Shown here one piece after another: positions 19,368 to 61,753 of a stretch of DNA of 64,000 bases; within the stretch, counting starts at the first letter, position 1; the number at the start of each line of letters is the position of its first letter. The translations under genes were made by a program, and so were the position numbers. Source of the stretch: Burkholderiales bacterium (GTDB lineage Bacteria; Pseudomonadota; Gammaproteobacteria; Burkholderiales; SG8-39); NCBI GenBank assembly GCA_036274735.1, contig DASUFD010000027.1, positions 1,710-65,709 of the forward strand. The letters are read 5' to 3'. Below the pieces are notes generated by a model. It searched no databases. It was not told where the DNA came from and was given only the letters and a program-made list of their open reading frames with translations.

Positions 19368-20891
19368 ATGACCGAATCGGCGCTCCGGGCCGTGATGCAC
19401 TCCGAAGTGCCGTGGCTCGCCCTGCTCGCGCTGGTCGTGACCGGGCTGCTGCTGCGCTCGCGGCCGCACGAGCGGGCCGTGTTCCTGAATACGCTCTGGC
19501 TCTTTCTCTTCGGCGCCGCGGGCCAGGCGGCCGCTTGGGCGCTCGAGCAGCTCGCCGTGCCGGGCGCGGGTACGGTGGTGCATACCGTGTTCCGCATCAT
19601 CGCGGCCATCGCGCTCATCCGCCTGCTCGGCTTCGCGCTGTTTCGCCTGGTGCTCGCACGGCTGCGCGGCGAGCCGCCGCGCATCATCGAGGATTTGACG
19701 ATCGCCGCCGCGTACGTCGTATTCGCGCTCGCGCAGCTGCGCGTCGCCGGTGTCGACCTGTCGAGCATCATCACCACCTCCGCGATCCTTACCGCCGTGG
19801 TCGCCTTCGCCATGCAGGACACGCTCGGCAACGTGATCGGCGGACTGGCCATCCACATCGACAACAGCGTGCGCGTGGGCGACTGGGTGCGGGTCGACGA
19901 CGTCTCCGGGCGCGTGCGCGACATCGGCTGGCGCTCGACGACCATCGAGACGCGCAACTGGGAAACGGTCGTCGTGCCGAACAGCCTGATGATGAAGGGC
20001 CGCGTGGCGATCCTCGGCAAGCGCGAGGGCGGGCCGCTGCAGTGGCGGCGCACGCTCGCCTTCATGGTCGATCCCGGCGTGCCGCCGGCGCGGGTCATCG
20101 CCACGGTGAACGACGAGATGCGCGACGTGCCGATCGTCAACGTCGCGCGCACGCCGGCGCCGAACACCGTGCTGCACGGCTTCGAGGCCGGCAACCTGCT
20201 CTATCACCTGCGCTACTTCCTGACCGATCTGCTCGAGGACGAAGCGACCGACTCGATGGTGCGGGTACACCTCTTCGCCTCGCTGCAGCGCGCGGGCATC
20301 CGCATCGCCGAAGAGCAGCGCACCGTGCACGCGGTGAGCCGCGACGAGGCGCACGCCGACGCGGTGCGCAAGCGCGAGATCGGCCGGCGCCTCGAAATGC
20401 TGCGCGGCGTGGACCTCTTCTCGGTGCTTTCGGAAGACGAGATCGCCGAGATCGCCGAGCGCCTGCAGTACGCGCCCTTCGCACGCGGCGACATCATCAC
20501 TAAGCAGGGCAACGTCGCCCATTGGCTCTACATCGTCGCCTTCGGCGAGGTGGAAGTGCGCTACGAGCCGGCGAGCGGCCGGCCCCAGATCCTCGCGACG
20601 CTGCGCGCCGGGCAGTTCTTCGGCGAGATGGCGCTGCTCACCGGCGAAGCGCGCAGCGCCACCGTGACGGCGAAGACCGACGTCGAGTGCTACCGGCTGG
20701 ACCGCGCGTCGTTCCAGGGGCTGCTGCTTTCGCGTCCCGAGATCGCCGAGGCCATGAGCCGCATCATCAGCGCGCGGCGGCCGGAGCTCGAGAAGGTGCG
20801 CGAGGCCACCGCGGTCGCGCCTCTCGTCGCGCCGGTGGAATCGGCGGACCTACTGCGCAAGATCCAGCGCTTTTTTGGCATCCGCCGCTAG
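19368..20891 (+). CDS. mechanosensitive (MscS-family) channel with C-terminal cyclic-nucleotide-binding domain
   Basis: 507 aa. TM helices plus the MscS beta-domain (VRVGDWVRVDDVSGRVRDIGWRSTTIETRNWE). The cNMP phosphate-binding cassette reads FFGEMALLTGEARSATVTA. Confidence 0.85.
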   Translation: MTESALRAVMHSEVPWLALLALVVTGLLLRSRPHERAVFLNTLWLFLFGAAGQAAAWALEQLAVPGAGTVVHTVFRIIAAIALIRLLGFALFRLVLARLRGEPPRIIEDLTIAAAYVVFALAQLRVAGVDLSSIITTSAILTAVVAFAMQDTLGNVIGGLAIHIDNSVRVGDWVRVDDVSGRVRDIGWRSTTIETRNWETVVVPNSLMMKGRVAILGKREGGPLQWRRTLAFMVDPGVPPARVIATVNDEMRDVPIVNVARTPAPNTVLHGFEAGNLLYHLRYFLTDLLEDEATDSMVRVHLFASLQRAGIRIAEEQRTVHAVSRDEAHADAVRKREIGRRLEMLRGVDLFSVLSEDEIAEIAERLQYAPFARGDIITKQGNVAHWLYIVAFGEVEVRYEPASGRPQILATLRAGQFFGEMALLTGEARSATVTAKTDVECYRLDRASFQGLLLSRPEIAEAMSRIISARRPELEKVREATAVAPLVAPVESADLLRKIQRFFGIRR

Positions 20892-23598: not shown

Positions 23599-24347
23599 CA
23601 GATCACCTTCGCTTCGTTGCGCAGCTTGTCGACCAGCGCCCTGGCATCGGCCACCTTGACGCCCGCCTTGCGCTTGGCCGGCTCGGTGACCTTGAGCGTG
23701 GCGAGCCGCGGCGCAACGTCCACCCCCAACGCGTCGGGCTTCAGCACCTCGAGCGTCTTCTTCTTGGCCTTCATGATGTTGGGCAGCGTGACATAGCGCG
23801 GCTCGTTCAGGCGCAGGTCCGTGGTCACCACGGCGGGCAGCTTGATCGACTCCGTCTCCAGCCCGCCATCGACCTCGCGCGTCACCGTCGCGCTGCCCTC
23901 GGCGATTCTCACCTTGGACGCGAACGTGGCCTGCGGCCAGCCGAGCAGCGCGGCGAGCATCTGGCCGGTCTGGTTCGAGTCGTCGTCGATCGCCTGCTTG
24001 CCGAGGATGACGAGCCCGGGCTTCTCCCTGCCGCATACCGCCTTCAGCAGCTTGGCGACCGCGAGCGGCTGCAGCTCTTCGCCGGACTCGACGAGGATCG
24101 CGCGGTCGGCGCCGATCGCCAGCGCCGTGCGCAAGGTCTCCTGGCAGGCCGGCACGCCGCAGGAGACGACGACGATCTCGCTCGCGACGCCGGCTTCCTT
24201 CAGCCGCACCGCCTCCTCTACCGCGATCTCGTCAAAGGGATTCATCGACATCTTTACGTTCGCAGTCTCGACGCCGGTCCCGTCGGCCTTGACCCGGACC
24301 TTGACGTTGAAATCGACCACGCGCTTGGCGCTAACGAGGATTTTCAT
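23598..24347 (-). CDS. etfB: electron transfer flavoprotein subunit beta
   Basis: 249 aa, starting [19 protein letters not shown]. Shares 1 nt with etfA (TGATG). Confidence 0.95.
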
Positions 24348-26403
24348 CGTCGAAAATTATACTTTCGACGAGTGCATCGAGCGCCGCCGCGCCCGTTTGA
24401 AACACGGCGACCGGATTGACGTCGACGGCGCAGACCCTGCCCTCCCAGCGCAGCATGGCCTCGCCCAGCCTCACCGCCATGCGGGCGAAGGCGGCGATGT
24501 CGCATGCCGCCTCGCCCCGCACGCCGTGCAGGAGCGGCGCGATGCGCAGCGCTTCGAGCTTCGCGACTACGTCCTGCTCTGAAAAGGGCGGCAGGAGCAG
24601 CCGGTAATCCTTCAGCGCCTCGAGATAGATGCCGCCGTCGCCGACCATGACGACCGGGCCGAAGCGCGGGTCGAGCCTCGCGCCGAGAGCCAGCTCGCGC
24701 GCCTTGCCCGCCTTGCGCGCCACGATCACGCCGTCGAACCAGCCGCCCAGCTCGCCGATGCGGCGGCGCAGGCGATGGAACTCCGCGACCGGATCGTCGA
24801 CCTGCAACGCGACGAGCCCGACGTCGCTCTTGTGCGCAATATCGCGCGAGCATCCCTTGAGCACGACCGATGTCCCGAGCGCCTTGCAGGCAGCCCGCAC
24901 TTCGTCTTCATCCCGGCACAGGCGATGCTCGATCACCGCGATGCCGGCTTGACCGAGCAGCGCCATGCCGGCCGCTTCGTCCAGCCGCCTCGCCGGGCCC
25001 GCGGCAAAGGCGCGCGGCACGGACGCCGGCGAACGGCGCAGCAGCGCCGCGTGGTCCGCGAGCTGCGCGAGAGCGTCCATCGCTTCGCGTTCGCGCGGGA
25101 ACGTGGCGATTCCCGCTTGAGAGAACGTTTCACGCACCGACGCCTGGGGCGCGGCGAGCGCCGCCGTGGCACCGTAGCGCTGCTGGAAGGAGGCCAAATC
25201 GCGCGCGAATCCCTGGACGTCGTAGCCCGTGCCGGCGACGGGAAGAGCGACCAGCACGAGCTCGCACTGAGCGTGTTCTCCGATGACCGGCAGCACGTCG
25301 CCGAATAGCCGGGGGTTGCCGAGCAGCGCGCCCGTGATGTCGATCGGGTTGTCGACCGCCGCGAACGTCGGCAGCACTGCGCGCAGGCGCGCGGCGGAAA
25401 CGGGGGCGAGCGGGATCGCACGCTCCTCGGCATAATCGGCGGCCATCACGCAGCTCGCCCCCGAGTTGCTGATGAACACCAGCCGGCGTCCAGCGGGGCG
25501 GCGCCCCTGTACATAGAGCTCGGCCGCGCTCACCAGCTCGTGCGGATCCGACGCGCGCCAGATCGCATGGCGCTCGAAGAAGGCATCGACGATGCGGTCC
25601 TCCGTGGCGAGCGCGCCGGTGTGCGAGCTCGCCGCCTTTTGGCCGCTGGCGGTGCGCCCGGCCTTGAGAGCGACGATCGGCAGGTCGCGACTGCGCGCAG
25701 CCTCGGCCGCGAGCGCGAGCGCCGCCGGATCCTTGATCGACTCGAGGTAGAGCAGGAGCAGGCGCACGCCGGGATCGGCCGCCACCGCGGCCGCAAGGTC
25801 GGCGACGGCGACATCGGCTTCGTTGCCGGTGGCGTGCACGTGGCGCACGCCCAGACCCCTGTCGCGCACGAGCTGGTAGATGGCCTGCGAGTTGGCGCCG
25901 CTCTGGCTGACGATCGCGACCGGACCGTCCCGTCCCTCCAGCTCGTGGAAAATGGTGGAAAAGTTCGCCACGGTGCCGGTGGCGAAATTCGCCAGCCCCT
26001 GGCAGTTGGGCCCGATCAAGCGCATGCCGGCGGCTTGCGCCGCCGCGACCATCCGGTTCTGCTTCGCCGATCCAGCTTCGCCCGTTTCCGCGAAACCGGA
26101 GGTCATCACCACCGCGACTTTCACGCCGCGCGCGGCGCAGGCCTCGACGGCCCGTACCGCTTCGTCACCCGCGACGGCGACGACGGCGAGATCCGGCGCA
26201 CGCGGCGTATCCTCGATCCCGGCGAACGCGCGCAAGCCCTGCACGGCGCTCCGCGCCGGGTTGATCGGATAGATCGCGCCGCGGTAGCCGTAGCGCTTGA
26301 GGTAGAGCAGCGGACGCCCGCCGACCTTGTGCGGATTGTCTGAGGCGCCGATGACGGCGATCGACTCGGGGTCCAGCGCGGCGTGCAGCATGGCGGCAGG
26401 CAT
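24331..26403 (-). CDS. ADP-forming acyl-CoA synthetase (acetate-CoA ligase family, CoA-binding plus ATP-grasp domains)
   Basis: 970-aa track ORF trimmed to the ATG at 26401-26403, giving 690 aa. Motifs [22 protein letters not shown] and the SSHTGALA phosphohistidine loop. The 3' end overlaps the etfB start by 17 nt. Confidence 0.85.
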
Positions 26404-26412
26404 AATAAGGCC

Positions 26413-27318
26413 ATGCTCGAAGGCAAGACGGTGCTCGTCACCGGCGCAGGCGGCGGGATCGGTCGGGATTTCGCGCTCGCCATGGCGGCCGCCGGCGCGA
26501 GCGTTCTGGTGAACGACCTCGGCACCTCGGTGGCGGGGGAAGGCGCGAGCGCCGGTCCGGCGCAGAAAGTCGCCGACGAGATCCGCTCGGCCGGCGGACG
26601 CGCGGCGGCGAGCACGGACAGCGTCGCCGACTGGGCCTCGGCGAACCGCATCGTGGAGGCCGCGCTCGACCATTTCGGACGGCTCGACGTCGTGGTGAAC
26701 AACGCCGGCATCCTGCGCGACCGGTTCTTCTTCAACATGTCCGTGGAGGAATGGCGCGCAGTCATCGACGTCCATCTCAACGGGTCGTTCTACGTTGCGC
26801 GCGCCGCCGCACCGCACTTCCGCTCGCAGCAATCGGGCTGCTATGTCCACATGACCTCGACCTCCGGCCTGGTCGGCAACCTCGGGCAGGCAAACTACTC
26901 CGCCGCCAAGCTGGGCATCGTGGGGCTCTCCAAGTCGATCGCCCTCGACATGGCGCGCTACCAGGTACGCTCGAACTGCATCGCGCCCTTCGCCTGGAGC
27001 CGCATGATCGGCTCCATCCCGACCGAGACGCAGGATCAGCAGGCACGCGTGGAGAAGATGAAGAGCATGCACACGGCGAAGATCGCTCCGCTTGCGGTCT
27101 GCCTTGCGGCCGATGTCGCGCGCGAGGTCACCGGCCAGGTCTTCGCGGTCCGGGGGAACGAGATCTTCCTGATGTCGCAGAGCCGGCCGCTTCGCTCCGT
27201 GCATCGCGCCGACGCATGGACGCCGGAGGCGATCGCGGCGCACGCACTCCCCGCTTTGCGCTCGAGCTTCTATCCTCTCGAGCGCTCCCAGGATGTCTTC
27301 AACTGGGATCCGCTCTAG
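26413..27318 (+). CDS. SDR-family oxidoreductase (MFE-2-type hydroxyacyl-CoA dehydrogenase-like)
   Basis: 301 aa from the ATG at 26413. Motifs KTVLVTGAGGGIGR, NNAGI and YSAAK. A GTG at 26383 is an alternative start. Confidence 0.85.
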   Translation: MLEGKTVLVTGAGGGIGRDFALAMAAAGASVLVNDLGTSVAGEGASAGPAQKVADEIRSAGGRAAASTDSVADWASANRIVEAALDHFGRLDVVVNNAGILRDRFFFNMSVEEWRAVIDVHLNGSFYVARAAAPHFRSQQSGCYVHMTSTSGLVGNLGQANYSAAKLGIVGLSKSIALDMARYQVRSNCIAPFAWSRMIGSIPTETQDQQARVEKMKSMHTAKIAPLAVCLAADVAREVTGQVFAVRGNEIFLMSQSRPLRSVHRADAWTPEAIAAHALPALRSSFYPLERSQDVFNWDPL

Positions 27319-27330
27319 CCGGCAACGCCG

Positions 27331-28614
27331 CTACGCGGCCTGGGCCAGCCGCCGATTGGACTCGGCCAGTCGTTCAATCAGGACTCGCATGCACGCCCTG
27401 TTGAGCGCTGCCTGGCAGGCGTCGGACGCCGCGCGCATGGCCGCGGCCTTCACTTCGAGCACGCCGATGTCGCGCCGCGCGCTGACGGTGGTGCTACGCG
27501 GTTGTTCGTGCTCCGAGAAGTACAGCATCTCGCCGAAGCATCGCCCGGCCTTCACCGTGGCGAGCAGCTTGCCGGAGAGCGTCACGTCGACCTCCCCATC
27601 GGCCAGGAAATAGAGCGCGTCCCCGGGCTCGCCTTCGCGCAGGACGACGCTGCCGGCGGCGATCGTCTTCCACGCGCCGATCCGCACCAGCTCCCACAGC
27701 GCGACATCGTTGAAGTCCGCGAAGAACGGCGATTCGCGCAGCTTGTTGAACCTTTCGGAGTCGGAGAGCACGCCGCCGGCCTGGCGCAGCGCCGCGAAGG
27801 CCTGCGAGAGGTCGCGACCGAAGTCGAGCCACGACGCGTAGCGCGCGGCCGGGTCCTTGGCGATGGCCCTCATCACTACTGAGTCGAGCAGCGCGGGCAG
27901 CTCGGGCCGCAGCTGTGCCGGGCGCTGCGGCTCGGCGTTCAGTATGGCGTAGGTGAGGCCCGCCTGGGTGGACGCGGCGAAGGGCAGGCGGCCGGTCACC
28001 AGCCGGTACATCGTGACGCCGAGCGAATAGATGTCGGTCTGGTGCGTGAGCGGCTCCATCCGGATCTGCTCGGGCGACATGTAGGCGGGTGACCCGACGA
28101 GGCTGACCTGCGTGGTGTCGAGCAGCTTCTGCTGGAACGACGCGCCGAAGTCCCCGACCTTCGTCTCGCCGCTCGCCGAAAGCAGGATGTTGCCGGGCTT
28201 GATGTCGCGGTGGATGACGCCGTGGCGGCAGGCGTACTCGAGCGCGCGCACGCACTTGAAGATGATCTCGACGACCTTGCCGAGCGGCAGGAGCGTCGGC
28301 GCCTCGGCGTGCGCCTCCAGAGTCGTGCCCGCGACGTACTCCATGACCAGGTAGCTGCGGTCCGGGTCGACCACGGCGTCGAAGATGTCGACGATGTGCG
28401 GATGGTTCAGCTTGCCGGCAAGCGACGCCTCGGCAACGAACGCCTTGTGCATCATCCGCTCCTCGTGCTCGTCGGCGTGCTTGTCGAAGAGGAACACCTT
28501 GATGGCCACCTCGCGCCCGGCGAAGGGGTCGCGCGCGAGATACACCTTGCTCGTCGCGCCCGCGCCGATCTCGCGCAGCACCGGATACTTGCCGATGCGC
28601 TCGGGCAGCGCCAC
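27331..28614 (-). CDS. Hanks-type Ser/Thr protein kinase fused to a cyclic-nucleotide-binding domain
   Basis: 427 aa. The GTG at 28612-28614 lies 2 nt after the chpA stop. Kinase motifs GAGATSKV, VAIKV, HRDIKPGNILL, DFG and SPAYMSPE. C-terminal cNMP cassette CFGEMLYFSEHEQPRSTTVSA. Confidence 0.88.
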   Translation of the reverse strand: MALPERIGKYPVLREIGAGATSKVYLARDPFAGREVAIKVFLFDKHADEHEERMMHKAFVAEASLAGKLNHPHIVDIFDAVVDPDRSYLVMEYVAGTTLEAHAEAPTLLPLGKVVEIIFKCVRALEYACRHGVIHRDIKPGNILLSASGETKVGDFGASFQQKLLDTTQVSLVGSPAYMSPEQIRMEPLTHQTDIYSLGVTMYRLVTGRLPFAASTQAGLTYAILNAEPQRPAQLRPELPALLDSVVMRAIAKDPAARYASWLDFGRDLSQAFAALRQAGGVLSDSERFNKLRESPFFADFNDVALWELVRIGAWKTIAAGSVVLREGEPGDALYFLADGEVDVTLSGKLLATVKAGRCFGEMLYFSEHEQPRSTTVSARRDIGVLEVKAAAMRAASDACQAALNRACMRVLIERLAESNRRLAQAA

Positions 28615-28616
28615 CC

Positions 28617-31600
28617 TTACCGCGCCGCGAAGGCAGCCACGTGCCGCACCAGCTCGGCCTCCTCATAGGGCTTGCCGAGGAACACGTCGACGCCGAGCTG
28701 CGCGGCCCGGCTGCGGTGCTTGGCCGCGGTGCGCGAGGAGATGACGATGATCGGGATGTCGGTGGTGCGCGGGTCGCCGCGCACGTTGCGCGCCAGGTCG
28801 AAGCCGTCCATGCGCGGCATCTCGATATCGACCAGCAACACCGCCGGCAGCTCGCCCTTGAGCTGCTCCAGCGCGTCGACCCCGTCCTTGGCGGTGAGCA
28901 CCCGGTAGCCCTCGCGCTCGAGCAGGCGGCCGGTGACCTTGCGTACCGTGATCGAGTCGTCGACGACCATCACCAGCGGCGCACGCACCTCCCGCGCTGC
29001 GAGCTCCGGTACGCCGGTGCGCGCGACGGGAAGGGCGGCGCGGCCGACGAGCTGGATCGGATTGACGATCAGCACGATGCTGCCGTCCGGCATCACGGTC
29101 GCACCTGCGACGCCGGGAATGCGGGCAAGCTGCGGCCCTATGTTCTTCACGACCATCTCGCGGCTGCCCACCAGCTCGTCGACATGGAGCGCGACGCGCT
29201 GCGTGCCGCTGCGAACCAGGAGCACCGCGTTGTAGTCGGCGATGTGCGTGGCGCCGCGGCTGCCGAACAGCTGGTGCAGGTAGTGGAGCGGATAGTCGCT
29301 CTCGCGGAAGACGACCTTCGCCGCTTCGTAGCACGCCACGAGCTCGTCGGCCTTGACGCGCAGCACCTGCTCGACCGCCGCCGAGGCGATCGCAAAGCGC
29401 TGCGTCCCGGCGCGAACCATGAGCGCCTGGGTGACCGCCAGCGTGAGCGGCAGATAGATGGTGAAGTGGGTGCCGCGGCCCGCGGCGGCGTCGGCCTCGA
29501 CCCGTCCGCCGATGGCGTTGACCTCGCTGCGCACCACATCCAAGCCGATGCCGCGGCCGGCCAGCTCGCTCACCGCTTCCGCGGTCGATAGCCCGGAGAG
29601 GAAGACGAGCTGCACGCATTCCTCTGGCGAAAGCGGCTGCTCGGCGGGAATGAGGCCCTTAGCCGCGGCACGCTCGCGAAGCCGCGCGCCGTCGATGCCG
29701 ATGCCGTCGTCGGCGAGGGCGATCACCAATTGATTGGCCTCCTGTCGCAGCGCGATGGAGATGCGGCCGCTTTCGGGCTTGCCGGCCGCGACGCGCGTCT
29801 CCGGGGCCTCGATGCCATGCACCATCGCGTTGCGCAGCATGTGCTCGAGCGGCGCGGCCATCCGCTCGAGGACGCCGCGGTCGAGCTCGACCTGGCCGCC
29901 GTCGATGGCGAGCTCCGCTTTCTTGCCCAGCTCGCGCGCCGCCTGGCGCACCACGCGATGCAGGCGCTCGGAGAGGCTGGAGAACGGCACGGCGCGCATG
30001 CGCATGAGGTCCTGCTGCAGCTCGCGGCTGATGCGCGCCTGCTGCAGCAGCGCGGCGTCGGTCTCGCCGACGCTGTGCAGGAGTGCCTGCTGGAGCGACG
30101 CGGCATCGCTCAGGCCCTCGGCCATCATGCGCGTCAGCTCCTGCAGGCGGGTGTACCGGTCGAACTCGAGCGGATCGAACTCGCCTTCCCGCTCTTCCAG
30201 GACGGCGCGGCGCGACTGCATCTGGCTGTCCGCCTGGATCTCGACCTCGCGCAGCTGCGTGCGCAGCCGCGAGACGCTTTCGCTCAGCTCGCCGAGCGCC
30301 TGCTTTACCTGGCGCAGCTCCGCTTCGATGCGCGATCGCGCGATTGCCGCCTCGCCCGCCTCGGTGATCAGCCGGTCGAGCCGCTCGGCGTTGATGCGCA
30401 GCATCGGCGTCGAAGCCGCAGCGGGCGCGGCCGCCGCGCCGGGTGCCCCGAGCTTCTCCAGGTCGGCGGACAGGCGATCCATCTTGCCTTCCAGGTCCTC
30501 GAACAGCTCGGTCGTGAGCTCGCCCGCCTCGAGCGCGAACTCGATGCGGCTCTCCATGAGGTGCGTGAGCTCGCCCAGGCGAATTGCCCCAGCCATGCGC
30601 GCGCTTCCCTTCAGCGTATGCAATGCGCGTTTCACCGCGTCGGCTGCGTGGCGATCCTCGGGCGATGCCTGCCAGTCGCGCAGGTCCCTGCCGAGCTGCG
30701 GCAGCAGCTCGCGCGCCTCGTCGAGGAACACCGGCAGCAGATGGGCGTCGATATCGTCGCGCACGGTACGCTTGTCCTTGCGGCGCGCCGGGACCTGCAA
30801 GCGGTCTTTCAGCGCCCGCAACGCGGCGAGCGCATCCTCGCCGCCGCGGCGCGCTTCCCCGCGGCCCGCGGCCTCGACCATCGCGGCCAGCGTGTCGACG
30901 CATTCGCCGACGACGGCGGCGTCGCCAGGCTCGCCGGTACGTGCGGCCAGGGCAAGCCATTGCTCGAGCGCGGCGGCGAGCGTCGCGATGTCCGGGAAGC
31001 CGGCGGTACGCGAGCTGCTGGCGAGCGTGTGCGCGGCGCGCATGAACTCCGGCGACGCCTCCGCAGGCGCCTGCTCGCGCCACGCGCCGTACTGCGCCTT
31101 CAACGTGGCGGCGTGCGCCGCGGCCTCCTTGAAGTAAATCTCTCGCATGCGCACGGCTGGATCGTCCTGCGCGCGCAGGCCGGCCGCGAGGCGACGCAGG
31201 GGTGCTGGATCGACGAGGGGCGACTCCCCGGCGCGCAACTGGGCGATCCAGGCGGAGAAGCGCTGATGCGCGAGCGCTACCAGCTCGAGCAGCTCGGCCG
31301 ATGCGGGCTGCTTCTGCTCCAGCCACTGATTCATGGCCCGCTCCACTTCCCACGCCGCCTCGCCGAGCTCCGTGAGCCCGACCATGCGCCCGCTGCCCTT
31401 CAGCGTATGGAAACCGCGCCGGATCGCCGCGAGCGCTTCCAGCTTCTCCGGCTCGGCGCGGCACGCCGCGAGCCCCGCTTCAACCGCCGCAACCACGTCC
31501 GCCGCTTCCTCGAGGAAGACCTGCAGTAGCTCGTCGGACGGCGCGCCCGCGCTCTGCGCGCCGGCCTTCTCGGGCATCGGCTGCTGCGCCGCCCGCGCGA

Positions 31601-33245
31601 GGAAGAGGTCGAGCGCCGCCTGCCGGGGCTCGCGTCCGTTCACGCAGGGGCTGATGAACAGCTCCAGGGCGCTGAGGCCTTCGGCCACCCAGTCCAGGCT
31701 CGCGCTGCCAGGCGAGAGCGTCGGCATCAGCGCCTCGCAACGCTCGAGCGCGGCGATGGCGCGATCCCAGCCGAGGACGGACAGCGCACCGTGGATCTGC
31801 CGCAGTTGCGGCGCCACGCCGCGCAGCTCGGCGAGCTCCTTCTGCCCCCGCGCGTAGCCGTCTAGCACCTGCTCGATCCGCTGCAGGTTCGCGAGCATTT
31901 CCTTGGCTACCTGGGAGCGAAGTTGCAGCGAGCTCACGTACTCGGTGAGCTCGCGGCGCAGGCCGGCCGGCGGCGCAACGGTCTTGCCCGCGCCGGCGGC
32001 GTCGGCAAGCCAGCGGCCGAGGAGGCTCACCTGCTCGTCGAGATCCGGCGCGGGATGAAGGAATGTCTCGAGGATGCTCTCGGCGAGCAGGAACGCGGAA
32101 GCCATCTCGGCGAGCATCGCTTCGCTGTCGGGCGGACGCGGGTCCGGCAGCGTCGCGGCCGCTTCGCCGACGGCTCGCAGGAGCGCGCTGAGCGGCGCGC
32201 TGGAGAGCGCGCCGACGCGCTCCTTCAGCGCCTGCACCCGCGCCCGGAAGGCCAGCGCGCCGCTCGGCTCGCCTTCCAGGTATTGCTGCCAGGTCTGCTG
32301 GGCGGCCTGGAGGCGCAGCCGCACGTCCTCGAGCACCGGTTGCAGCGTGTCGACATCCGGGCTGCGCGCGCCTTGCGCAGGCAGCAGGGCGTCGAGGCCA
32401 TAGAGGCGCTTGACGTCGCGCAGGCGTTGCGTGAGCGGCGCGCAGCAGGCGATGGCATAAAGCAGGTCGCGCAGCAGGGGCTCGTTGTCGGGGCTCGCGT
32501 CCCGCCCCTGCGCAAGCTGCCGAATGTAGATGTCGATCTTGTTCCACAGCGATCGCGCCTGCGCGAGGCGTTGCGGGTCGGTAGCGTTCGGCAGGCCATC
32601 GGCCAGGGCGCCGGCGACCCACCACAAGGCGCGGCGCTCGGGCAGCAGGTGCGCGACCGAATGGATGACGTCGAGCGTGGCGCGCATCTCGTCCAGCGCC
32701 TGGGGCTCGCGTCGGATCCAGCCGAGGATGGCCCGCTGCCAGCGCGTGCGCTGCGACTGCAGGAACGCCGGCAATTCCGCCGCCTCGATGGCGAGCGGCC
32801 GGGGGTGCGAGGGGGCGGGCGGCGTCAGGTCAGGGAAGAACAGCTCGATCTCCGAGCTGTCCTCGCGTCCCTGGAGCTGCGCGAGCTCCCGGTATACGGG
32901 GAAGAGCCGCGTCGGCGCGTTCGGCTGCCCGCGCGCCACGTCGTCGACGAACTGCCTCAGCTCGAGCACCGCCCGGTCGAGCACTGCCGCGCCCTGGGCG
33001 CCGGCATCCTCGAGCCCGGTCAGGCTTCTCTCCAGTGCCTCGCAAAAGCGCGTCGCGCCGCTCAGTCCGACCATGTTCAGCGCACCGCTCACCTGGTGCA
33101 GGTGCTCGGGACACGCGGCGAGCGGCGCGGCGTCGCCCGGCGCCGTCCGGTACGCGGCGAGCTGGCGGCGCACGCGCTCCAGCGCCTGGTCCACCTCGGC
33201 GGTGATCCAGGAAAGAATCGTCGTGTCGGCCATCAAGCCCGTCAC
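28617..33245 (-). CDS. chpA: ChpA/PilL-type hybrid CheA histidine kinase (multiple Hpt, HATPase, CheW-like, C-terminal receiver)
   Basis: 1542 aa. Canonical Hpt motifs GFHTLKGSGR (His613) and ALHTLKGSAR (His876), plus three degenerate Hpt-like sites. Kinase core HMLRNAMVHGIE...GRGIGLDVV, then a CheW-like region. REC domain VMVVDDS...LVDIEMPRMDG. Start is GTG 33245 or ATG 33233. Confidence 0.9.
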   Translation of the reverse strand: MTGLMADTTILSWITAEVDQALERVRRQLAAYRTAPGDAAPLAACPEHLHQVSGALNMVGLSGATRFCEALERSLTGLEDAGAQGAAVLDRAVLELRQFVDDVARGQPNAPTRLFPVYRELAQLQGREDSSEIELFFPDLTPPAPSHPRPLAIEAAELPAFLQSQRTRWQRAILGWIRREPQALDEMRATLDVIHSVAHLLPERRALWWVAGALADGLPNATDPQRLAQARSLWNKIDIYIRQLAQGRDASPDNEPLLRDLLYAIACCAPLTQRLRDVKRLYGLDALLPAQGARSPDVDTLQPVLEDVRLRLQAAQQTWQQYLEGEPSGALAFRARVQALKERVGALSSAPLSALLRAVGEAAATLPDPRPPDSEAMLAEMASAFLLAESILETFLHPAPDLDEQVSLLGRWLADAAGAGKTVAPPAGLRRELTEYVSSLQLRSQVAKEMLANLQRIEQVLDGYARGQKELAELRGVAPQLRQIHGALSVLGWDRAIAALERCEALMPTLSPGSASLDWVAEGLSALELFISPCVNGREPRQAALDLFLARAAQQPMPEKAGAQSAGAPSDELLQVFLEEAADVVAAVEAGLAACRAEPEKLEALAAIRRGFHTLKGSGRMVGLTELGEAAWEVERAMNQWLEQKQPASAELLELVALAHQRFSAWIAQLRAGESPLVDPAPLRRLAAGLRAQDDPAVRMREIYFKEAAAHAATLKAQYGAWREQAPAEASPEFMRAAHTLASSSRTAGFPDIATLAAALEQWLALAARTGEPGDAAVVGECVDTLAAMVEAAGRGEARRGGEDALAALRALKDRLQVPARRKDKRTVRDDIDAHLLPVFLDEARELLPQLGRDLRDWQASPEDRHAADAVKRALHTLKGSARMAGAIRLGELTHLMESRIEFALEAGELTTELFEDLEGKMDRLSADLEKLGAPGAAAAPAAASTPMLRINAERLDRLITEAGEAAIARSRIEAELRQVKQALGELSESVSRLRTQLREVEIQADSQMQSRRAVLEEREGEFDPLEFDRYTRLQELTRMMAEGLSDAASLQQALLHSVGETDAALLQQARISRELQQDLMRMRAVPFSSLSERLHRVVRQAARELGKKAELAIDGGQVELDRGVLERMAAPLEHMLRNAMVHGIEAPETRVAAGKPESGRISIALRQEANQLVIALADDGIGIDGARLRERAAAKGLIPAEQPLSPEECVQLVFLSGLSTAEAVSELAGRGIGLDVVRSEVNAIGGRVEADAAAGRGTHFTIYLPLTLAVTQALMVRAGTQRFAIASAAVEQVLRVKADELVACYEAAKVVFRESDYPLHYLHQLFGSRGATHIADYNAVLLVRSGTQRVALHVDELVGSREMVVKNIGPQLARIPGVAGATVMPDGSIVLIVNPIQLVGRAALPVARTGVPELAAREVRAPLVMVVDDSITVRKVTGRLLEREGYRVLTAKDGVDALEQLKGELPAVLLVDIEMPRMDGFDLARNVRGDPRTTDIPIIVISSRTAAKHRSRAAQLGVDVFLGKPYEEAELVRHVAAFAAR

Positions 33246-33252
33246 CGGCGCT

Positions 33253-35361
33253 TCACGCCAGCCTGAAGCCGGCCACCGACTTCTTCAGCCCGACGGCCAG
33301 CTCGGTCAGCTTGGTCGCCGAGAGCGCGGTCTTCTTCGTACCCTCGGTGGTGAGCTGCGTCACGCCGAGGATGATCTTCATCTTGCCCGCCACCTCGGAT
33401 GCCGAAGCCGCCTGCTGCTGGGTGGCGTTGGAGATCGCGCCGATCAGCTCCGCCAGCCGGTTCGAGATCTTCTCGATCTCGCGCAGCGCCTGGTCGGCTT
33501 CGTCAGCGGTGCGCGTCCCCTCCACGACTTCCCGGGTGCTGCGCTCCATCGCCTCCACGGCGTCCTGGGTGTCGCGCTGAATGCTTTTCACGATCGTCCC
33601 GATGTGCTTGGTGGCTTCCGCCGAGCGCTCGGCGAGGCGCTGCACCTCCTCGGCAACCACCGTGAAGCCCCGTCCCGCCTCCCCCGCCGAGGCCGCCTGG
33701 ATCGCAGCGTTCAGCGCGAGCACGTTGGTCTGCTCCGTGATGTCGGAGATCAGCTGCACGATCTCGCCGATCTCCTGCGAGCTCTCGCCGAGCCGCTTGA
33801 TGCGCTTCGAGGTCTCCTGGATCTGCTCGCGGATGTCGTTCATGCCGCGGATCGCGTTCTGCACCGCCTCGGCGCCCTTGCCCGCAGCGGCGAGGGACGA
33901 CTCGGCCACCCTCGCCGAGTCGTTGGCGCTCGCCGAAACCTGGTTCATCGACTGCGCCATCCGCGTCACCGACTGTCCGGTCGCCTGGATCTCCATCGCC
34001 TGCTTCTGCGTCGCCTGCAGGAGCTGCCCCGACACCGTCTGGGCCTCCTGGGTCGCCGCGTTCACCTGCTGCGCGGCGTTTGTGATGCCGGCCACCAGAC
34101 GCCGCAGCTCGTCGATCGTGTAATTGATCGAATCGGCGATCGCACCGGTCATGTGCTCCGTGACCCGTGCCCGCACCGTCAGGTCGCCGCTCGCGAGGTT
34201 GCCGATCTCGTCCAGCAGCCGCAGGATGGCGTCCTGGTTCTCGCGGTTCTGGCGCTCGCTCTGCTCGGCCCGACGACGGCTGTCGTCGATGTACGTCTTG
34301 CCGATGAGCAGCAGCACGGCGAAGGCGAGCAGCGACACCCCGAGCATCGCCGCGAAGTTGAGCCGCCGGGCGTTGAGCAGGCCGTCGTAGCCGGCAGCGA
34401 GCTGCTCCGTCGCGCCGAGCAGCTTCTCGCTATCGTTGAAGATGTCGCGGGTGGCGCGCTTCGCGTTCACCAGGCGCTGCATGTTGCCGAGGATCTGGCT
34501 CACGCCCGCCTGGTACTCCTTGAAGGTCGCCTGCAGCTCGGCAAGCTTGCCGCGGATCATCGGCTCGTCGACCCGATCGATACGCAGCGCGCGGTCGCCC
34601 TGGGCGAGGCCCTGCACCAGGTCGCGAAAGGTGTTGGTGTCCTTGCCGAGCAGGAACGCCACCTCGGGGTCGACGATATCGCCCGCCAGCATGGCATTGG
34701 CGTTCTTCGCCATGCGCTGGGTCAGCATCACGAGCTGCGCGGCAATCGCGTTCTGCCGGGCGCCACCGCCGGTCTGCACGCTGAACGCGGCCACCTCCTC
34801 GGCGTTCTCGAGCAGCACCGGGTTGTTCTCGTTGATGGTGCGCACCGCGCCTGCCAGCGCGACCAGGTTGCGCTCCTCGCCGATCACCAGCATGGCGTTG
34901 CGTTCGGTCTTGCGCCACTCCGTTTCCAGCGCGGCGAGCCTGGGGCGCACCGCGTCCGGGGTCGGCGGCAGGTCCACCTCGGCGGCGGTGCCTCCTGCCG
35001 CGAGCAGGTGGACGAGCGAGGCGAACTCGTCGCGGCTTTCGCGCAGCTGCTGGAAAGCCACCGGGTTGCCTTGCGAAGCCTGCTGCGCCGCCTTGGCCAG
35101 GCGCTGCGACAGCATGCGCAGCTTTCCGACGGTCGCGACGTAGAGCGTGTCGAAGGTCGCCTCACGAGCGTCGTAGACGACGACGCCGACGTCGATCGCG
35201 AGGAGCACGACGAGCAACACCATCAGGAACTGCAGTCGTCGCCCCGCGCCGCGCCGGGCGAGGCCGGCAAGCACCCCGGCCATGCCGCCGGAGGAGCGCG
35301 CTGCCCCCGCGGCGTCGCGCGCGATGAAAGGTATCTTGAAGAATTCGAGCCTGTTTCCCAT
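33253..35361 (-). CDS. pilJ: PilJ-type methyl-accepting chemotaxis protein
   Basis: 702 aa. Two PilJ/NarX-like periplasmic boxes ([13 protein letters not shown] and [13 protein letters not shown]). Signalling hairpin [31 protein letters not shown]. Confidence 0.9.
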
Positions 35362-35370
35362 GGCGACTCC

Positions 35371-36501
35371 CTAGCGCAGAAACTTGCCGTCGCGGGCGAT
35401 GATCGTCAGGTCAACGAACTTCGACGCGCTGTGATTGGTCGGCGAGAAGCCGACATAGAAGCCGCCGACGTCGACGTCGTTCATCCTCTCCAGCGTGGCG
35501 ATCAGCCGCTCGCGGGTGAGCTCGCGCCCGGTACGGCGCAAGGCTTCGACGAACACTTTCGCGGCGATGAAGCCTTCGATGGTGGTGAAGGTCAATTCCT
35601 TGTGGCCGGCGCGCCGCATCAAACCCTGATACTCGCGCACTACGGGGACCGCGGCGCCCCACGGGAAGGGCATCACCTGCGAAATCGCCACCCCGACGCC
35701 CTGCCCGCCGAGGTCGTCCGCGAGCGCCTTGCTGCCGACGAACGAGACGTTGTAGAACTGCGCGGCGCTGCCCTGCTTCTTCATCTGGCGGATGAACTCC
35801 GCGCAGGCCTTGTACGCGCCGATCATGACCACCGCGTCCGGCTGCGCGGCGTTCAAAGTTTTCACCGCGCGCTCCACCTTGACCGTGTTCCGCTCGAAGA
35901 TGCCCGTCGCCGAGATCTTCAGGTTGCGCCTCTCCATGGCGAGCTCGACCCCCTTGAGGCCCGCCTGCCCGTAGGCATCGTCCTGGTAGAACACGGCGAT
36001 GTTCTTCGAGCCGGTCGATACGAGCTGCTCGACGATCTTCTCCGTTTCGTCGTAATAGCTCGCTCTCACGTTGAAGATGTAGTGGTTCACCGGCTGGCGC
36101 AGCAGCTCGGCGCCGGTGAACGCGCCGAAGAACGGCACCTTCGCCTGTGTGAAAATCGGCAGCGCGGCCGCCGAGGTGGGCGTACCGACGTAGCCGAAGA
36201 GCGCGAATACCTTGTCCTGCTCGATCAGCCGCTTCGTGTTCGGCACGGTGCGCGAGGGCTCGTAGCCGTCGTCGAGCGTGATGAGCCGGATCTTGCGCCC
36301 GCTTACGCCGCCGCTCGCATTGACGTAGTCGAAGTAAACCTTCGCCCCGTTGCGCATCTCCGTGCCGAGAGCGGCCGCCGGACCCGTGAGCGCGACCGAC
36401 TGGCCGAGCACGATGGTGTCGGCGCTGACGCCGTTCTCGGCGAAGCTCGCAGGCGAGAAGAATCCTGCCGCGACGAGCAGGCAAGGAGCGATGCGCTTCA
36501 T
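35371..36501 (-). CDS. periplasmic substrate-binding protein, LivK/Peripla_BP_6 (branched-chain amino acid ABC type)
   Basis: Track ORF trimmed to the ATG at 36499-36501, giving 376 aa. Signal peptide MKRIAPCLLVAAGFFSPASFA. Motifs IVLGQSVALTGPAAALG and GYVGTPT. ATGA overlap with the pilI stop, with a GGAGG SD inside the pilI 3' end. Confidence 0.88.
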   Translation of the reverse strand: MKRIAPCLLVAAGFFSPASFAENGVSADTIVLGQSVALTGPAAALGTEMRNGAKVYFDYVNASGGVSGRKIRLITLDDGYEPSRTVPNTKRLIEQDKVFALFGYVGTPTSAAALPIFTQAKVPFFGAFTGAELLRQPVNHYIFNVRASYYDETEKIVEQLVSTGSKNIAVFYQDDAYGQAGLKGVELAMERRNLKISATGIFERNTVKVERAVKTLNAAQPDAVVMIGAYKACAEFIRQMKKQGSAAQFYNVSFVGSKALADDLGGQGVGVAISQVMPFPWGAAVPVVREYQGLMRRAGHKELTFTTIEGFIAAKVFVEALRRTGRELTRERLIATLERMNDVDVGGFYVGFSPTNHSASKFVDLTIIARDGKFLR

Positions 36502-37025
36502 AGGCTGGCCTCCAGGAAAGCGGGGTGTTCGACGAGGGCCGGGATGTCGAGCTCCCTCCACAGCTTGCCGTGCGCATCGGCGAAGACGCCGCGCACGAAC
36601 GCCGGCCGGCGCGGCGCGTTCTCGCCGTGCTGGCGCAGCGCCTCGGGATCGCGCAGACCGAGCGAGCGCTCGACGAGCAGCGCCGCCCCGGAACGAAAGC
36701 GCTCGTTGACGAGGAGCAGGCGGCATTGCTCGCCGGGCCTCGTGGGCGCTCCGCCGAGGAACGCCGCGAAGTCGGTCACGCAGTACAGGTTTCCGCGCAC
36801 ATTCGCCACGCCCTTGAACCAGGGGCGCGCGAGCGGCACGGCGGAGACTGCGGGCACGGGAATGACTTCGCCCGCCTCTGCGAGGTCGACCAGCCAGCCT
36901 TCGTCCCCGACCTGCAGCCCGAGCTTCGAGGCGATGCGCGCGCCCGCTTGGGCGCTCTGCAGGCGCTCGGAAAGCGCGAGCTGATACTCGCGCAGCGAGC
37001 CCGCTCGGGAGGCCGGCGTGGCCAT
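36498..37025 (-). CDS. pilI: CheW-like coupling protein PilI
   Basis: Trimmed to the ATG at 37023-37025, giving 175 aa. CheW-like core (VPLARPWFKGVANVRGNLYCVTDF). Shares 1 nt with the pilH stop. Confidence 0.85.
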   Translation of the reverse strand: MATPASRAGSLREYQLALSERLQSAQAGARIASKLGLQVGDEGWLVDLAEAGEVIPVPAVSAVPLARPWFKGVANVRGNLYCVTDFAAFLGGAPTRPGEQCRLLLVNERFRSGAALLVERSLGLRDPEALRQHGENAPRRPAFVRGVFADAHGKLWRELDIPALVEHPAFLEASL

Positions 37026-37390
37026 CAGCCGAGCGCGGCGATCTTGGCGAGCAGATCCGCCGGGTTGACGGGCTTGACGACATAGTCGCGCGCGCCCTGG
37101 CGCAAGCCCCACACCTTGTCGGTCTCCTGCCCTTTGCTGCTGCACAGTATGATCGGGATGCTCTTGGTGCTCTCGTCCCTGCTCAGGGCACGCGTCGCCT
37201 GGAAGCCGTTCTGCCCGGGCATCACGACATCCATCAGCACGAGGTCTGGGCGCGATGTTCTGAGCTTGGCCATCGCGTCCTCGGCGCTCTCGGCCGTGGC
37301 GACCTTGAAGCCGCTCTTGGACAGGATCTCGCTCAGGTACTGGCGGTCGGTAGGCGAATCGTCGACGACCAGGATGTTGGAAATAGCCAT
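37025..37390 (-). CDS. pilH: single-domain response regulator PilH
   Basis: Trimmed to the ATG at 37388-37390, giving 121 aa. Motifs ILVVDDSPTDR...LMDVVMPGQNG...KP. Confidence 0.9.
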   Translation of the reverse strand: MAISNILVVDDSPTDRQYLSEILSKSGFKVATAESAEDAMAKLRTSRPDLVLMDVVMPGQNGFQATRALSRDESTKSIPIILCSSKGQETDKVWGLRQGARDYVVKPVNPADLLAKIAALG

Positions 37391-37401
37391 GGCAATGCCT
37401 T

Positions 37402-37827
37402 TCAGTTGGAAACGGAAGAAGCTTTGACGTACTCGTTGACCGCCTCGACCAGGCCTTCCCGCGTGAAGGGCTTGGTGAGATAGCGATCGGAACCGGCCAG
37501 GCGGCCGCGCGCCCGGTCGAAGACGCCGTCCTTGCTCGAGAGCATGATCACGGGGGTCGACTTGAGGCGCGCGTTCTGCTTGATCAGCGCGCAAGTCTGG
37601 TAGCCGTCCAGGCGCGGCATCATGATGTCGACGAAAATGACGCGCGGCTGGTGGTCGGCGATCTTGGCGAGGGCATCGAAGCCGTCCTCGGCGAGAATCA
37701 CTTCGTAGCCGGCTTGGCGGAGGAACGTTTCGGCGCTGCGCCGGATGGTGTTGCTATCGTCGATGACAAGGACTTTGACCGGTCCTGTTCCTACCGTGAG
37801 CGGTCCGACCGTGGTCTCGTTCGTCAC
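37402..37827 (-). CDS. pilG: single-domain response regulator PilG
   Basis: 141 aa, GTG start with a GGAGGAG SD. VLVIDDSNTIRRSAETFL...FVDIMMPRLDGYQTCALIK...LSSKDG...YLTKPF closely resembles Pseudomonas PilG as I recall it. Confidence 0.92.
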   Translation of the reverse strand: MTNETTVGPLTVGTGPVKVLVIDDSNTIRRSAETFLRQAGYEVILAEDGFDALAKIADHQPRVIFVDIMMPRLDGYQTCALIKQNARLKSTPVIMLSSKDGVFDRARGRLAGSDRYLTKPFTREGLVEAVNEYVKASSVSN

Positions 37828-59438: not shown

Positions 59439-60218
59439 ATGCTCGCCGAAGTCGGTTATGAAGTCGCCGCAGTCAGGGCGTTCAAGGACAACTACGTCTG
59501 GACGCTGCGCAACGCCACCCATGCGGCGGTGGTCGATCCGGGCGACGCCCAGCCCGTGCTCGATTATCTCGCGCAGGAGAAGCTTGCGCTCGCCGCGGTG
59601 CTCGCGACGCATCACCATCCGGACCACGTCGGCGGCATCGCCCGCCTGCTCGAGCGCTGGAGCGTCCCGGTGTACGGGCCGCGGGGCGAGCCCATCGCCA
59701 CGGTGACCCGGCCGGTTTCGCAGGGCGACACGGTGGAGATCGGGCAGCTCGGCGCCCGCTTCTCGGTGCTCGACATTCCCGGCCATACGCGCGCGCACAT
59801 TGCCTATTATGGCGGCGGCGCCCTCTTCTGCGGCGACACGCTCTTCGCCTGCGGCTGCGGGCGGCTCTTCGAAGGCACGCCGGAGCAGATGTTTGCGTCC
59901 CTCGAGAAGCTGCGCGCCCTTCCCGACGACACGAAGATCTATTGCGGGCACGAATACACGCTCGCCAACATCGGCTTCGCCAGGGCAGTGGAGCCCGGGA
60001 ACGCGGCGCTCGAGCGGCGCGAAGCGCGCGACCGGCGCCTGCGCGAAGCCGGTCGCCCTACCCTTCCCTCGACGCTCGGCGACGAAAAGGCCACCAACCC
60101 GTTCCTGCGCTGTCGCGAGACGGCGGTCATCGAGTCGGCGAACAAGTATCTCGGCGCGCGCATCGCCGATCCGGTGCGCGTATTCGCCGCCATCCGTGAG
60201 TGGAAGAACCGGTTTTGA
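59439..60218 (+). CDS. gloB: hydroxyacylglutathione hydrolase (glyoxalase II)
   Basis: 259 aa. Motifs THHHPDHVGG, GHT and CGHEYT. Confidence 0.93.
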   Translation: MLAEVGYEVAAVRAFKDNYVWTLRNATHAAVVDPGDAQPVLDYLAQEKLALAAVLATHHHPDHVGGIARLLERWSVPVYGPRGEPIATVTRPVSQGDTVEIGQLGARFSVLDIPGHTRAHIAYYGGGALFCGDTLFACGCGRLFEGTPEQMFASLEKLRALPDDTKIYCGHEYTLANIGFARAVEPGNAALERREARDRRLREAGRPTLPSTLGDEKATNPFLRCRETAVIESANKYLGARIADPVRVFAAIREWKNRF

Positions 60219-61708: not shown

Positions 61709-61753
61709 CAGGCGCAACGGCGCGTCCTGTGCCACTATGCGGGCCGCACTGCG

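Follow-up and report, generated by a model that had tools for sequence, protein, structure and literature searches.

The 64-kb stretch of DNA analyzed here (the window; contig DASUFD010000027.1 of an uncultured Burkholderiales bacterium) carries a cluster of Pil-Chp chemosensory genes that ends in a gene for a putative serine/threonine (Ser/Thr) protein kinase with a C-terminal cyclic nucleotide-binding (CNB) domain, the kinase-CNB gene. The Pil-Chp gene set pilG, pilH, pilI, pilJ, and chpA lies in one cluster (28617-37827). Together with a gene for a periplasmic solute-binding protein (SBP) and the kinase-CNB gene, it forms a run of seven genes on the same strand in the order pilG-pilH-pilI-SBP-pilJ-chpA-kinase, which overlap or are separated by gaps of a few bases (Table 1).

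Table 1. Positions of the kinase-CNB gene, its predicted domains, and neighboring genes in the window
Feature	Position (nt)	Strand	Remarks
Kinase-CNB gene	27331..28614	-	427 aa; GTG start; TAG stop at 27331-27333
Hanks-type (PknB-like) Ser/Thr kinase domain, residues 11-258	27841..28584	-	Pfam Pkinase PF00069
C-terminal CNB module, residues 285-427	27334..27762	-	Pfam cNMP_binding PF00027 and AlphaFold2 model
Phosphate-binding cassette FGEMLYFSEHEQPRSTTV, residues 360-377	27484..27537	-	G361, E362, R373, S374
chpA-like hybrid histidine kinase	28617..33245	-	1542 aa; Hpt, H-kinase_dim, HATPase_c, CheW, REC
pilJ-type methyl-accepting chemoreceptor	33253..35361	-	702 aa; PilJ N-terminal E 2.3e-22, MCPsignal E 3.4e-40
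Periplasmic SBP	35371..36501	-	~376 aa; signal peptide; NCBIfam LivK/UrtA-like
pilI, CheW-like coupling protein	36498..37028	-	~176 aa; Pfam CheW E 1.4e-18
pilH, single-domain response regulator	37025..37390	-	121 aa; Pfam Response_reg
pilG, single-domain response regulator	37402..37827	-	First operon gene; Pfam Response_reg E 5e-27
Short-chain dehydrogenase, outside the system	26383..27318	+	Pfam adh_short E 8e-43
MscS-type mechanosensitive channel	19368-20891	+	C-terminal cNMP_binding domain

Position and integrity of the kinase-CNB gene

The open reading frame (ORF) of the kinase begins with the GTG at 28614, its first in-frame start, and the TAA stop codon of chpA occupies 28617-28619. These coordinates confirm the 2-nt distance between chpA stop and kinase start given in an earlier note on this DNA. 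The same note had described the kinase as the last gene of the Pil-Chp operon, and this holds as well: pil-chp genes of the same strand lie upstream, and the next gene downstream, encoding the short-chain dehydrogenase, is convergent with a stop codon 12 nt from that of the kinase, which makes the kinase the last cistron of the cluster. The dehydrogenase gene occupies this place in just a subset of related loci. No terminator-like site was found between chpA and the kinase gene, and a promoter and terminator scan gave no signal exceeding the shuffled background.

The GC content at the three codon positions of the kinase ORF (0.69/0.46/0.91) is typical for genes of this window with 69% GC. More than 100 orthologues with 76-87% identity share the two-domain architecture of kinase and CNB domain, and the kinase ORF is therefore no chance ORF. 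The protein has no transmembrane segment, the highest Kyte-Doolittle mean over 19 residues being 1.34, and it is predicted to be soluble and cytoplasmic.

Predicted catalytic competence of the kinase domain

In a Pfam domain search, which the earlier note had proposed, both the Pkinase and the cNMP_binding models matched above their curated thresholds. The Pkinase match spanned residues 11-258 (E 1.1e-49, 169.7 bits versus a cutoff of 31.7). The catalytic set is complete and comprises K39, E62 of helix alphaC, H135-R136-D137, N142, D155-F156-G157, and E182 of the APE motif. All kinase motifs quoted in the earlier note are present, namely, VAIKV with K39, HRDIKPGNILL at 135-145, DFG at 155-157, and SPAYMSPE at 175-182, and the activation loop carries the threonines T167/T168. 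The catalytic residues are invariant in 40/40 chpA-linked orthologues. Across 59 diverse family representatives, 37-59% identical to the window kinase, residues K39, H135, D194, R258, and G361 are invariant, and 90% or more of them keep the catalytic Asp and Asn, the DFG motif, and E362.

A sequence search of PDB returned PknB as the best match to the kinase domain (E 1e-44). The AlphaFold2 model of the whole protein had a mean predicted local distance difference test score (pLDDT) of 83.4, and its comparison with PknB in Foldseek gave template modeling (TM) scores of 0.81-0.88, normalized to the target, in agreement with a bilobal kinase fold. By every testable criterion, the domain is a predicted member of the Hanks-type kinase family. 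The third glycine of the glycine-rich loop, whose canonical motif is GxGxxG, is replaced by Ser22 (GAGATS), but no positive evidence speaks for a pseudokinase or a scaffold devoid of phosphotransfer activity, and with K39, E62, the HRD aspartate, N142, DFG, and APE all in place and unchanged in every chpA-linked orthologue this explanation is highly improbable.

The CNB domain and its putative ligand

The cNMP_binding match covered residues 316-395 (E 3e-15, 56.4 bits versus a cutoff of 27.5), and positions 26-138 of the NCBIfam CRP model matched residues 316-425, a stretch of the model that presumably includes the dimerization helix of CRP. Secondary structure assignment by DSSP on the AlphaFold2 model gave helices at 285-294 and 303-312, beta-barrel strands within 314-389, and helices at 390-395 and 398-426, the last being a long C-helix of 29 residues. 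The model is thereby predicted to hold the full anatomy of a CNB domain, with N-terminal helices, beta-barrel, phosphate-binding cassette, and B and C helices. Foldseek with the full model gave kinase matches only, and the CNB domain was therefore compared by sequence. In this comparison, the module could be aligned with the CNB domains of the Plasmodium cyclic GMP (cGMP)-dependent protein kinase (PKG), the MloK1 channel, and the regulatory subunit of the cyclic AMP (cAMP)-dependent protein kinase (PKA), with the Gly-Glu and Arg-Ser pairs of the cassette in register with those of ligand-binding CNB domains.

The cassette itself lies within 27331-27735, the region for which it had been claimed in the earlier note. 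None of 51 close homologues and none of the 40 chpA-linked orthologues differs at G361, E362, or R373; among the 59 diverse representatives, the glycine is found in 59, the glutamate in 57, and the arginine in 53. The C-terminal domain is, by every testable criterion, a predicted member of the CNB family, and its predicted nucleotide pocket looks intact.

The residue following the cassette arginine bears on the identity of the ligand. Residue 374 (codon 27493-27495) is Ser in the window protein and Thr in 39/40 chpA-linked orthologues (R-T-T/S-T). Thr in this place favors cGMP in PKG and in cyclic nucleotide-gated (CNG) channels, and for this reason the ligand may not be cAMP. Which of the two nucleotides would be bound cannot be called from sequence. 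A role of the kinase as a cAMP effector is plausible.

A further explanation is that the C-terminal CNB fold does not sense cAMP or cGMP at all and instead binds another ligand or acts only as a dimerization or autoinhibition module. CNB folds with other ligands exist, as in CooA, which holds haem in the cAMP pocket (PMC2246266). The insertion of two residues in the cassette relative to PKA and PKG, the fall of pLDDT to 67 at residues 361-370, and the lack of a cyclase gene within the window point in the same direction. However, CNB families with noncanonical ligands characteristically lose the cassette arginine (PMC2246266), which is kept here, and the ribose-phosphate residues G361, E362, R373, and S/T374 show little or no variation among family members. 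A second canonical CNB protein, the MscS-type channel, is also encoded nearby, and taken together we consider a nonsensing CNB domain improbable.

The gene for this channel, a second predicted cyclic nucleotide receptor, is located about 6.4 kb from the kinase gene, and its presence suggests that the organism uses cyclic nucleotides. The channel gene is syntenic in the related contigs L001, L120, L121, L123, L124, and L139, and a gene with MS_channel and cNMP_binding domains is found at the contig edge of L002.

Linkage of chpA and the kinase gene in related loci

A metagenome scan that started from aligned ChpA N-termini and used the patterns LSWITAEV and CPEHL[HN]QV recovered 80 chpA loci, with N-terminal regions 44-74% identical to the window ChpA. 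Of these, 48 were informative in that they contain the entire chpA and 500 bp or more of sequence behind it. The kinase-CNB gene directly follows chpA in 48/48 of them, a count that corresponds to about ten sublineages and not to 48 independent tests because the loci include near-duplicates and were found with motifs of the ChpA of the same clade. The earlier note had named absence of the fusion beside chpA in related genomes as an observation that would speak against its proposal, and the check gave the opposite result. Identity to the window proteins in the informative loci ranged from 51 to 75% for ChpA and from 66 to 86% for the kinase.

The start codon of the kinase gene overlaps the chpA stop codon by 4 nt (ATGA/GTGA) in 38 of 50 scorable junctions, the window counted among them. 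A start/stop overlap of 4 nt is the classic arrangement for translational coupling. Unlike this commoner form, the junction in the window has a gap of 2 nt. From the arrangement of the genes, the kinase is co-encoded and probably co-translated with ChpA.

The window operon was also present in L001-L003, contigs found through their kinases (75-78% identity). The flank downstream of the kinase gene varies by sublineage: some carry the convergent dehydrogenase gene, some have same-strand electron transfer flavoprotein (ETF) genes, and others have unrelated ones. The gene upstream of pilG differs between sublineages, too. As both flanks of the operon vary while the chpA-kinase junction stays, the kinase gene travels with the operon.

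Two apparent counter-examples were rejected. Locus L165 seemed to lack the CheA core, but its translation proved to be an ordinary chpA cut off where the contig stops, and L105 was dropped as a locus with no kinase because the kinase start overlaps chpA there. The view that linkage is confined to kinases at least 75% identical, which came from the kinase motif genome scan described below and from six clpB-linked contigs, was overturned by chpA-linked kinases reaching down to 66% identity.

Distribution of the family and origin of the linkage

Dozens of full-length kinase-CNB clusters at 50% identity came out of a scan covering 1.8 billion cluster representatives. Among the named hosts of the family are Gallionellaceae, Usitatibacter, Azoarcus, Methylibium, Rhizobacter, Steroidobacteraceae, and Woeseiaceae. 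A genome scan with the kinase motif [VIL][IVL]HRD[IV]KPxN yielded, among the matches listed, at least 10 true family members, 9 of which have no chpA linkage. Members with 58-69% identity to the window kinase (L083-L089, on six distinct contigs) stand alone, each transcribed divergently from clpB and near moaE-moaD-moeA-mobB. Members with 38-47% identity adjoin argS, ribH-nusB-thiL-pgpA, a heptosyltransferase gene, and others, away from Pil-Chp genes. In an uncultured proteobacterium (L007) and a member of Woeseiaceae (L011), the kinase-CNB gene comes last on its strand after ribE-ribBA-ribH-nusB-thiL-pgpA, a second and independent case in which such a kinase ends a conserved string of genes.

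These genomic contexts indicate a widespread, generic family of about 430 aa that appears to be wired into Pil-Chp in this uncultured Burkholderiales lineage only. The co-occurrence with chpA, which the earlier note had suggested checking, stands for the loci of this lineage and fails for the kinase-CNB family at large.

In a neighbor-joining tree with 200 bootstrap replicates, the 40 chpA-linked kinases formed one clade that branches from inside the clpB-linked sequences and has L087 and L088 as its sisters. Bootstrap support was 78% (156/200) for the chpA-linked clade, 86% for this clade joined with L087/L088, and 100% for the chpA-linked and clpB-linked sequences together; a separate clade of the clpB-linked sequences was recovered in 4%. 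Between the two groups, the proteins are separated at positions 48 and 64 only, and with so few diagnostic positions no specialization for Pil-Chp is visible. Most simply, the tree can be read as one event in which a pre-existing general kinase gene was relocated to, or duplicated at, the 3' end of chpA, where it would have been kept since. The linkage looks like such a lineage-specific event rather than a purpose-built Pil-Chp component.

The same data bear on the possibility that the protein is a general-purpose cyclic nucleotide-responsive kinase, moved or copied from the clpB locus and co-transcribed at chpA, with a role unrelated to pili or chemosensing. The constant clpB neighborhood of the closer relatives, the argS, ribH-nusB-thiL-pgpA, and other housekeeping neighbors of the more distant ones, the nesting of the chpA-linked clade inside a clpB-linked grade, and the two diagnostic substitutions all suit this explanation. 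It accounts less well for a junction that has been kept in 48/48 loci while ChpA diverged to about 51% identity, for the 4-nt overlap kept in 38/50 loci, and for a kinase gene that moves with an operon whose flanks vary. We regard it as possible, but on the unlikely side.

Proposed mechanism

The reading that we put forward, and to which we give about an even chance, is that the protein is a competent Hanks kinase whose activity would be set by cAMP or cGMP on its CRP-like CNB domain and which, as the ChpA-coupled last cistron, would serve as an accessory output or feedback arm of the Pil-Chp system. A function as accessory output or feedback arm is suggested by the predicted synthesis of the kinase together with ChpA from a last, translationally coupled cistron. 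The earlier note had likewise proposed a direct effector or feedback arm, and the present analysis supports that proposal in part.

In the first step, a cyclic nucleotide would bind the CNB domain and move its B and C helices. The signal would then pass through the linker (residues 259-300), and probably also through dimerization on the long C-helix as in CRP, and allow the trans-autophosphorylation known from PknB-type kinases, here of the conserved activation-loop threonines T167/T168. Once active, the kinase would phosphorylate Pil-Chp or type IV pilus proteins, which are the likely substrates given the placement of its gene in the operon. In this way, the cyclic nucleotide level would be converted into Ser/Thr phosphorylation alongside the His-Asp relay.

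Several observations weigh against an effector role in Pil-Chp signaling. Most of the family has no tie to Pil-Chp, the chpA-linked proteins differ from their clpB-linked relatives at positions 48 and 64 only, the cassette has two residues more than in PKA and PKG, and the loci that display the linkage include near-duplicates and were retrieved with motifs of this clade's own ChpA. In addition, no gene for an adenylate or guanylate cyclase, CRP/Vfr, a PP2C phosphatase, or an FHA protein was found in the 64-kb window of about 45 genes.

A broader version of the proposal would make the protein a bacterial cyclic nucleotide-dependent kinase in one polypeptide, a PknB-type kinase gated by a CRP-type CNB domain, widespread in Beta- and Gammaproteobacteria and hard-wired to Pil-Chp in this lineage, where it would provide post-translational feedback parallel to the cAMP-Vfr pathway. 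This extension is advanced tentatively, and we hold it for doubtful.

Comparison with known systems

The predicted design resembles that of the eukaryotic PKG and PKA in that a CNB domain with a Gly-Glu...Arg-Ser/Thr cassette is combined with a Ser/Thr kinase, in PKG within one polypeptide; gating by the nucleotide is a prediction for the protein described here. The CNB domains of Plasmodium PKG were the best match of the C-terminal module among solved structures (E ~6e-22 summed over repeats). In contrast to PKG and PKA, the domain order is reversed, with the kinase first and a single C-terminal CNB domain in place of tandem CNB domains, and the kinase is PknB-like and not of the AGC type, the match of Plasmodium PKG to the kinase domain being limited to residues 62-216. 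The protein has no identified pseudosubstrate segment, its cassette is 2 residues longer, and its CNB domain resembles that of bacterial CRP, including the long C-helix. The protein is predicted to work like PKG but does not belong to the PKG/PKA family.

The closest relatives of the kinase domain are PknB and PknA of Mycobacterium tuberculosis, Stk1 of Staphylococcus aureus, and StkP of Streptococcus pneumoniae (E 1e-44 to 1e-35, TM-scores of 0.8-0.88 on the target). These PknB-type kinases share the activation-loop threonines with the kinase described here; they are membrane-anchored and carry extracellular PASTA or other sensors, whereas the present kinase is predicted to be soluble with an intracellular CNB domain.

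The mycobacterial protein Rv0998/MSMEG_5458 is a cAMP-regulated protein acetyltransferase in which a CNB domain is fused to a GNAT domain. It parallels the kinase-CNB protein as a CNB-gated, protein-modifying enzyme in one polypeptide, gating being predicted in the latter. Its output is lysine acetylation and it is not known to be part of a chemosensory operon, in contrast to the Ser/Thr phosphorylation predicted here.

The Pil-Chp operon of Pseudomonas aeruginosa (pilGHIJK-chpABCDE) includes pilK and chpB, encoding CheR and CheB, and its output is CyaB-cAMP acting via the transcription factor Vfr. It is not known to contain a protein kinase gene. The window cluster shares with it the order pilG-pilH-pilI-pilJ-chpA, a PilJ-type receptor, and a ChpA with multiple Hpt domains and a C-terminal REC domain. 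In comparison to P. aeruginosa, the cluster has no CheR/CheB genes, carries a binding protein gene before pilJ and the CNB-kinase gene after chpA, and encodes a ChpA with three His-type Hpt domains and no Ser/Thr-type Hpt variants.

A cyclic nucleotide-binding domain is among the kinase-associated domains in a survey of Ser/Thr kinases of Planctomycetota (PMC11032199). In the classification of CNB proteins from 2007, the fusion partners given for bacteria are HisK, AAA, CBS, channels, and oxidoreductases, with no Hanks kinases among them (PMC2246266). Automated annotation labels members of the family as either 'serine/threonine protein kinase' or 'CRP-like cAMP-binding protein'. No study of the kinase-CNB family or of the link between chpA and the kinase was found in full-text searches of a literature collection that lacks most subscription journals.

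Other genes of the operon and of the window

In ChpA, Pfam detected four Hpt stretches and a C-terminal REC domain, and the protein has three His-containing Hpt domains (H613, H739, and H876). Ser/Thr-type Hpt domains of ChpA had been considered as targets of the kinase, and this was ruled out since all three Hpt motifs carry His. The N-terminal domain of ChpA is FimL-like, and its orthologues in L001 and L002 have FimL_2nd and FimL_C Pfam matches. PilG is 88% identical to its orthologues in L001 and L002, and residues 1-121 of PilH are 79-88% identical to theirs. The length of PilI was set from orthologues of 169-176 aa. No CheR/CheB (pilK/chpB) genes were found between pilG and the kinase gene in the window, L001, or L002.

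The SBP gene is inserted between pilI and pilJ. Residues 1-376 of its product align to L002 in tblastn, and the orthologues carry Peripla_BP_5/6 domains. Most of the 80 related chpA loci contain the gene, which is missing in the sublineage of L143, L144, L148, and L151. The protein could bring a ligand to the PilJ receptor.

The remaining genes of the window belong mostly to acyl-CoA and central metabolism. No pilus structural gene, no second copy of the kinase gene, and no clpB were found within the 64 kb. A REC-GAF-GGDEF-EAL protein encoded at 16728-18956 (-) is predicted to turn over cyclic di-GMP under two-component control; no orthologue of it was seen among the related loci compared. The mechanically called ORF of 970 aa at 24331-27243 (-) is over-extended, as its CoA-ligase/ATP-grasp orthologues have 678-698 aa, and the surplus at its 5' end runs into the convergent adh_short gene. 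Two adjacent genes at 60200-63133 (+) share one layout, an SLT lytic transglycosylase domain with LysM after it.

Significance

In the usual view, bacterial cAMP acts via CRP-type transcription factors and cyclic nucleotide-dependent protein kinases are a eukaryotic feature. Both the two-domain architecture and the retained place of the gene in the operon are firmly supported, and the linkage is lineage-specific. If active, a widespread and conserved family of CNB-gated Hanks kinases would alter this view, and the kinase of this uncultured soil bacterium may be a bacterial counterpart of the cAMP- and cGMP-dependent protein kinases. Since the protein is small and predicted to be soluble, recombinant binding and activity assays would be straightforward despite the uncultured host.

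The kinase at the end of the operon offers an entry point to the roles of Pil-Chp outside Pseudomonas and to a possible cross-wiring of His-Asp chemosensing, second messengers, and Ser/Thr phosphorylation in surface sensing. If the broader version of the proposal is true, Ser/Thr phosphorylation of proteins of the chemosensory system or the pilus would be the direct readout of a second messenger made downstream of pilus signaling.

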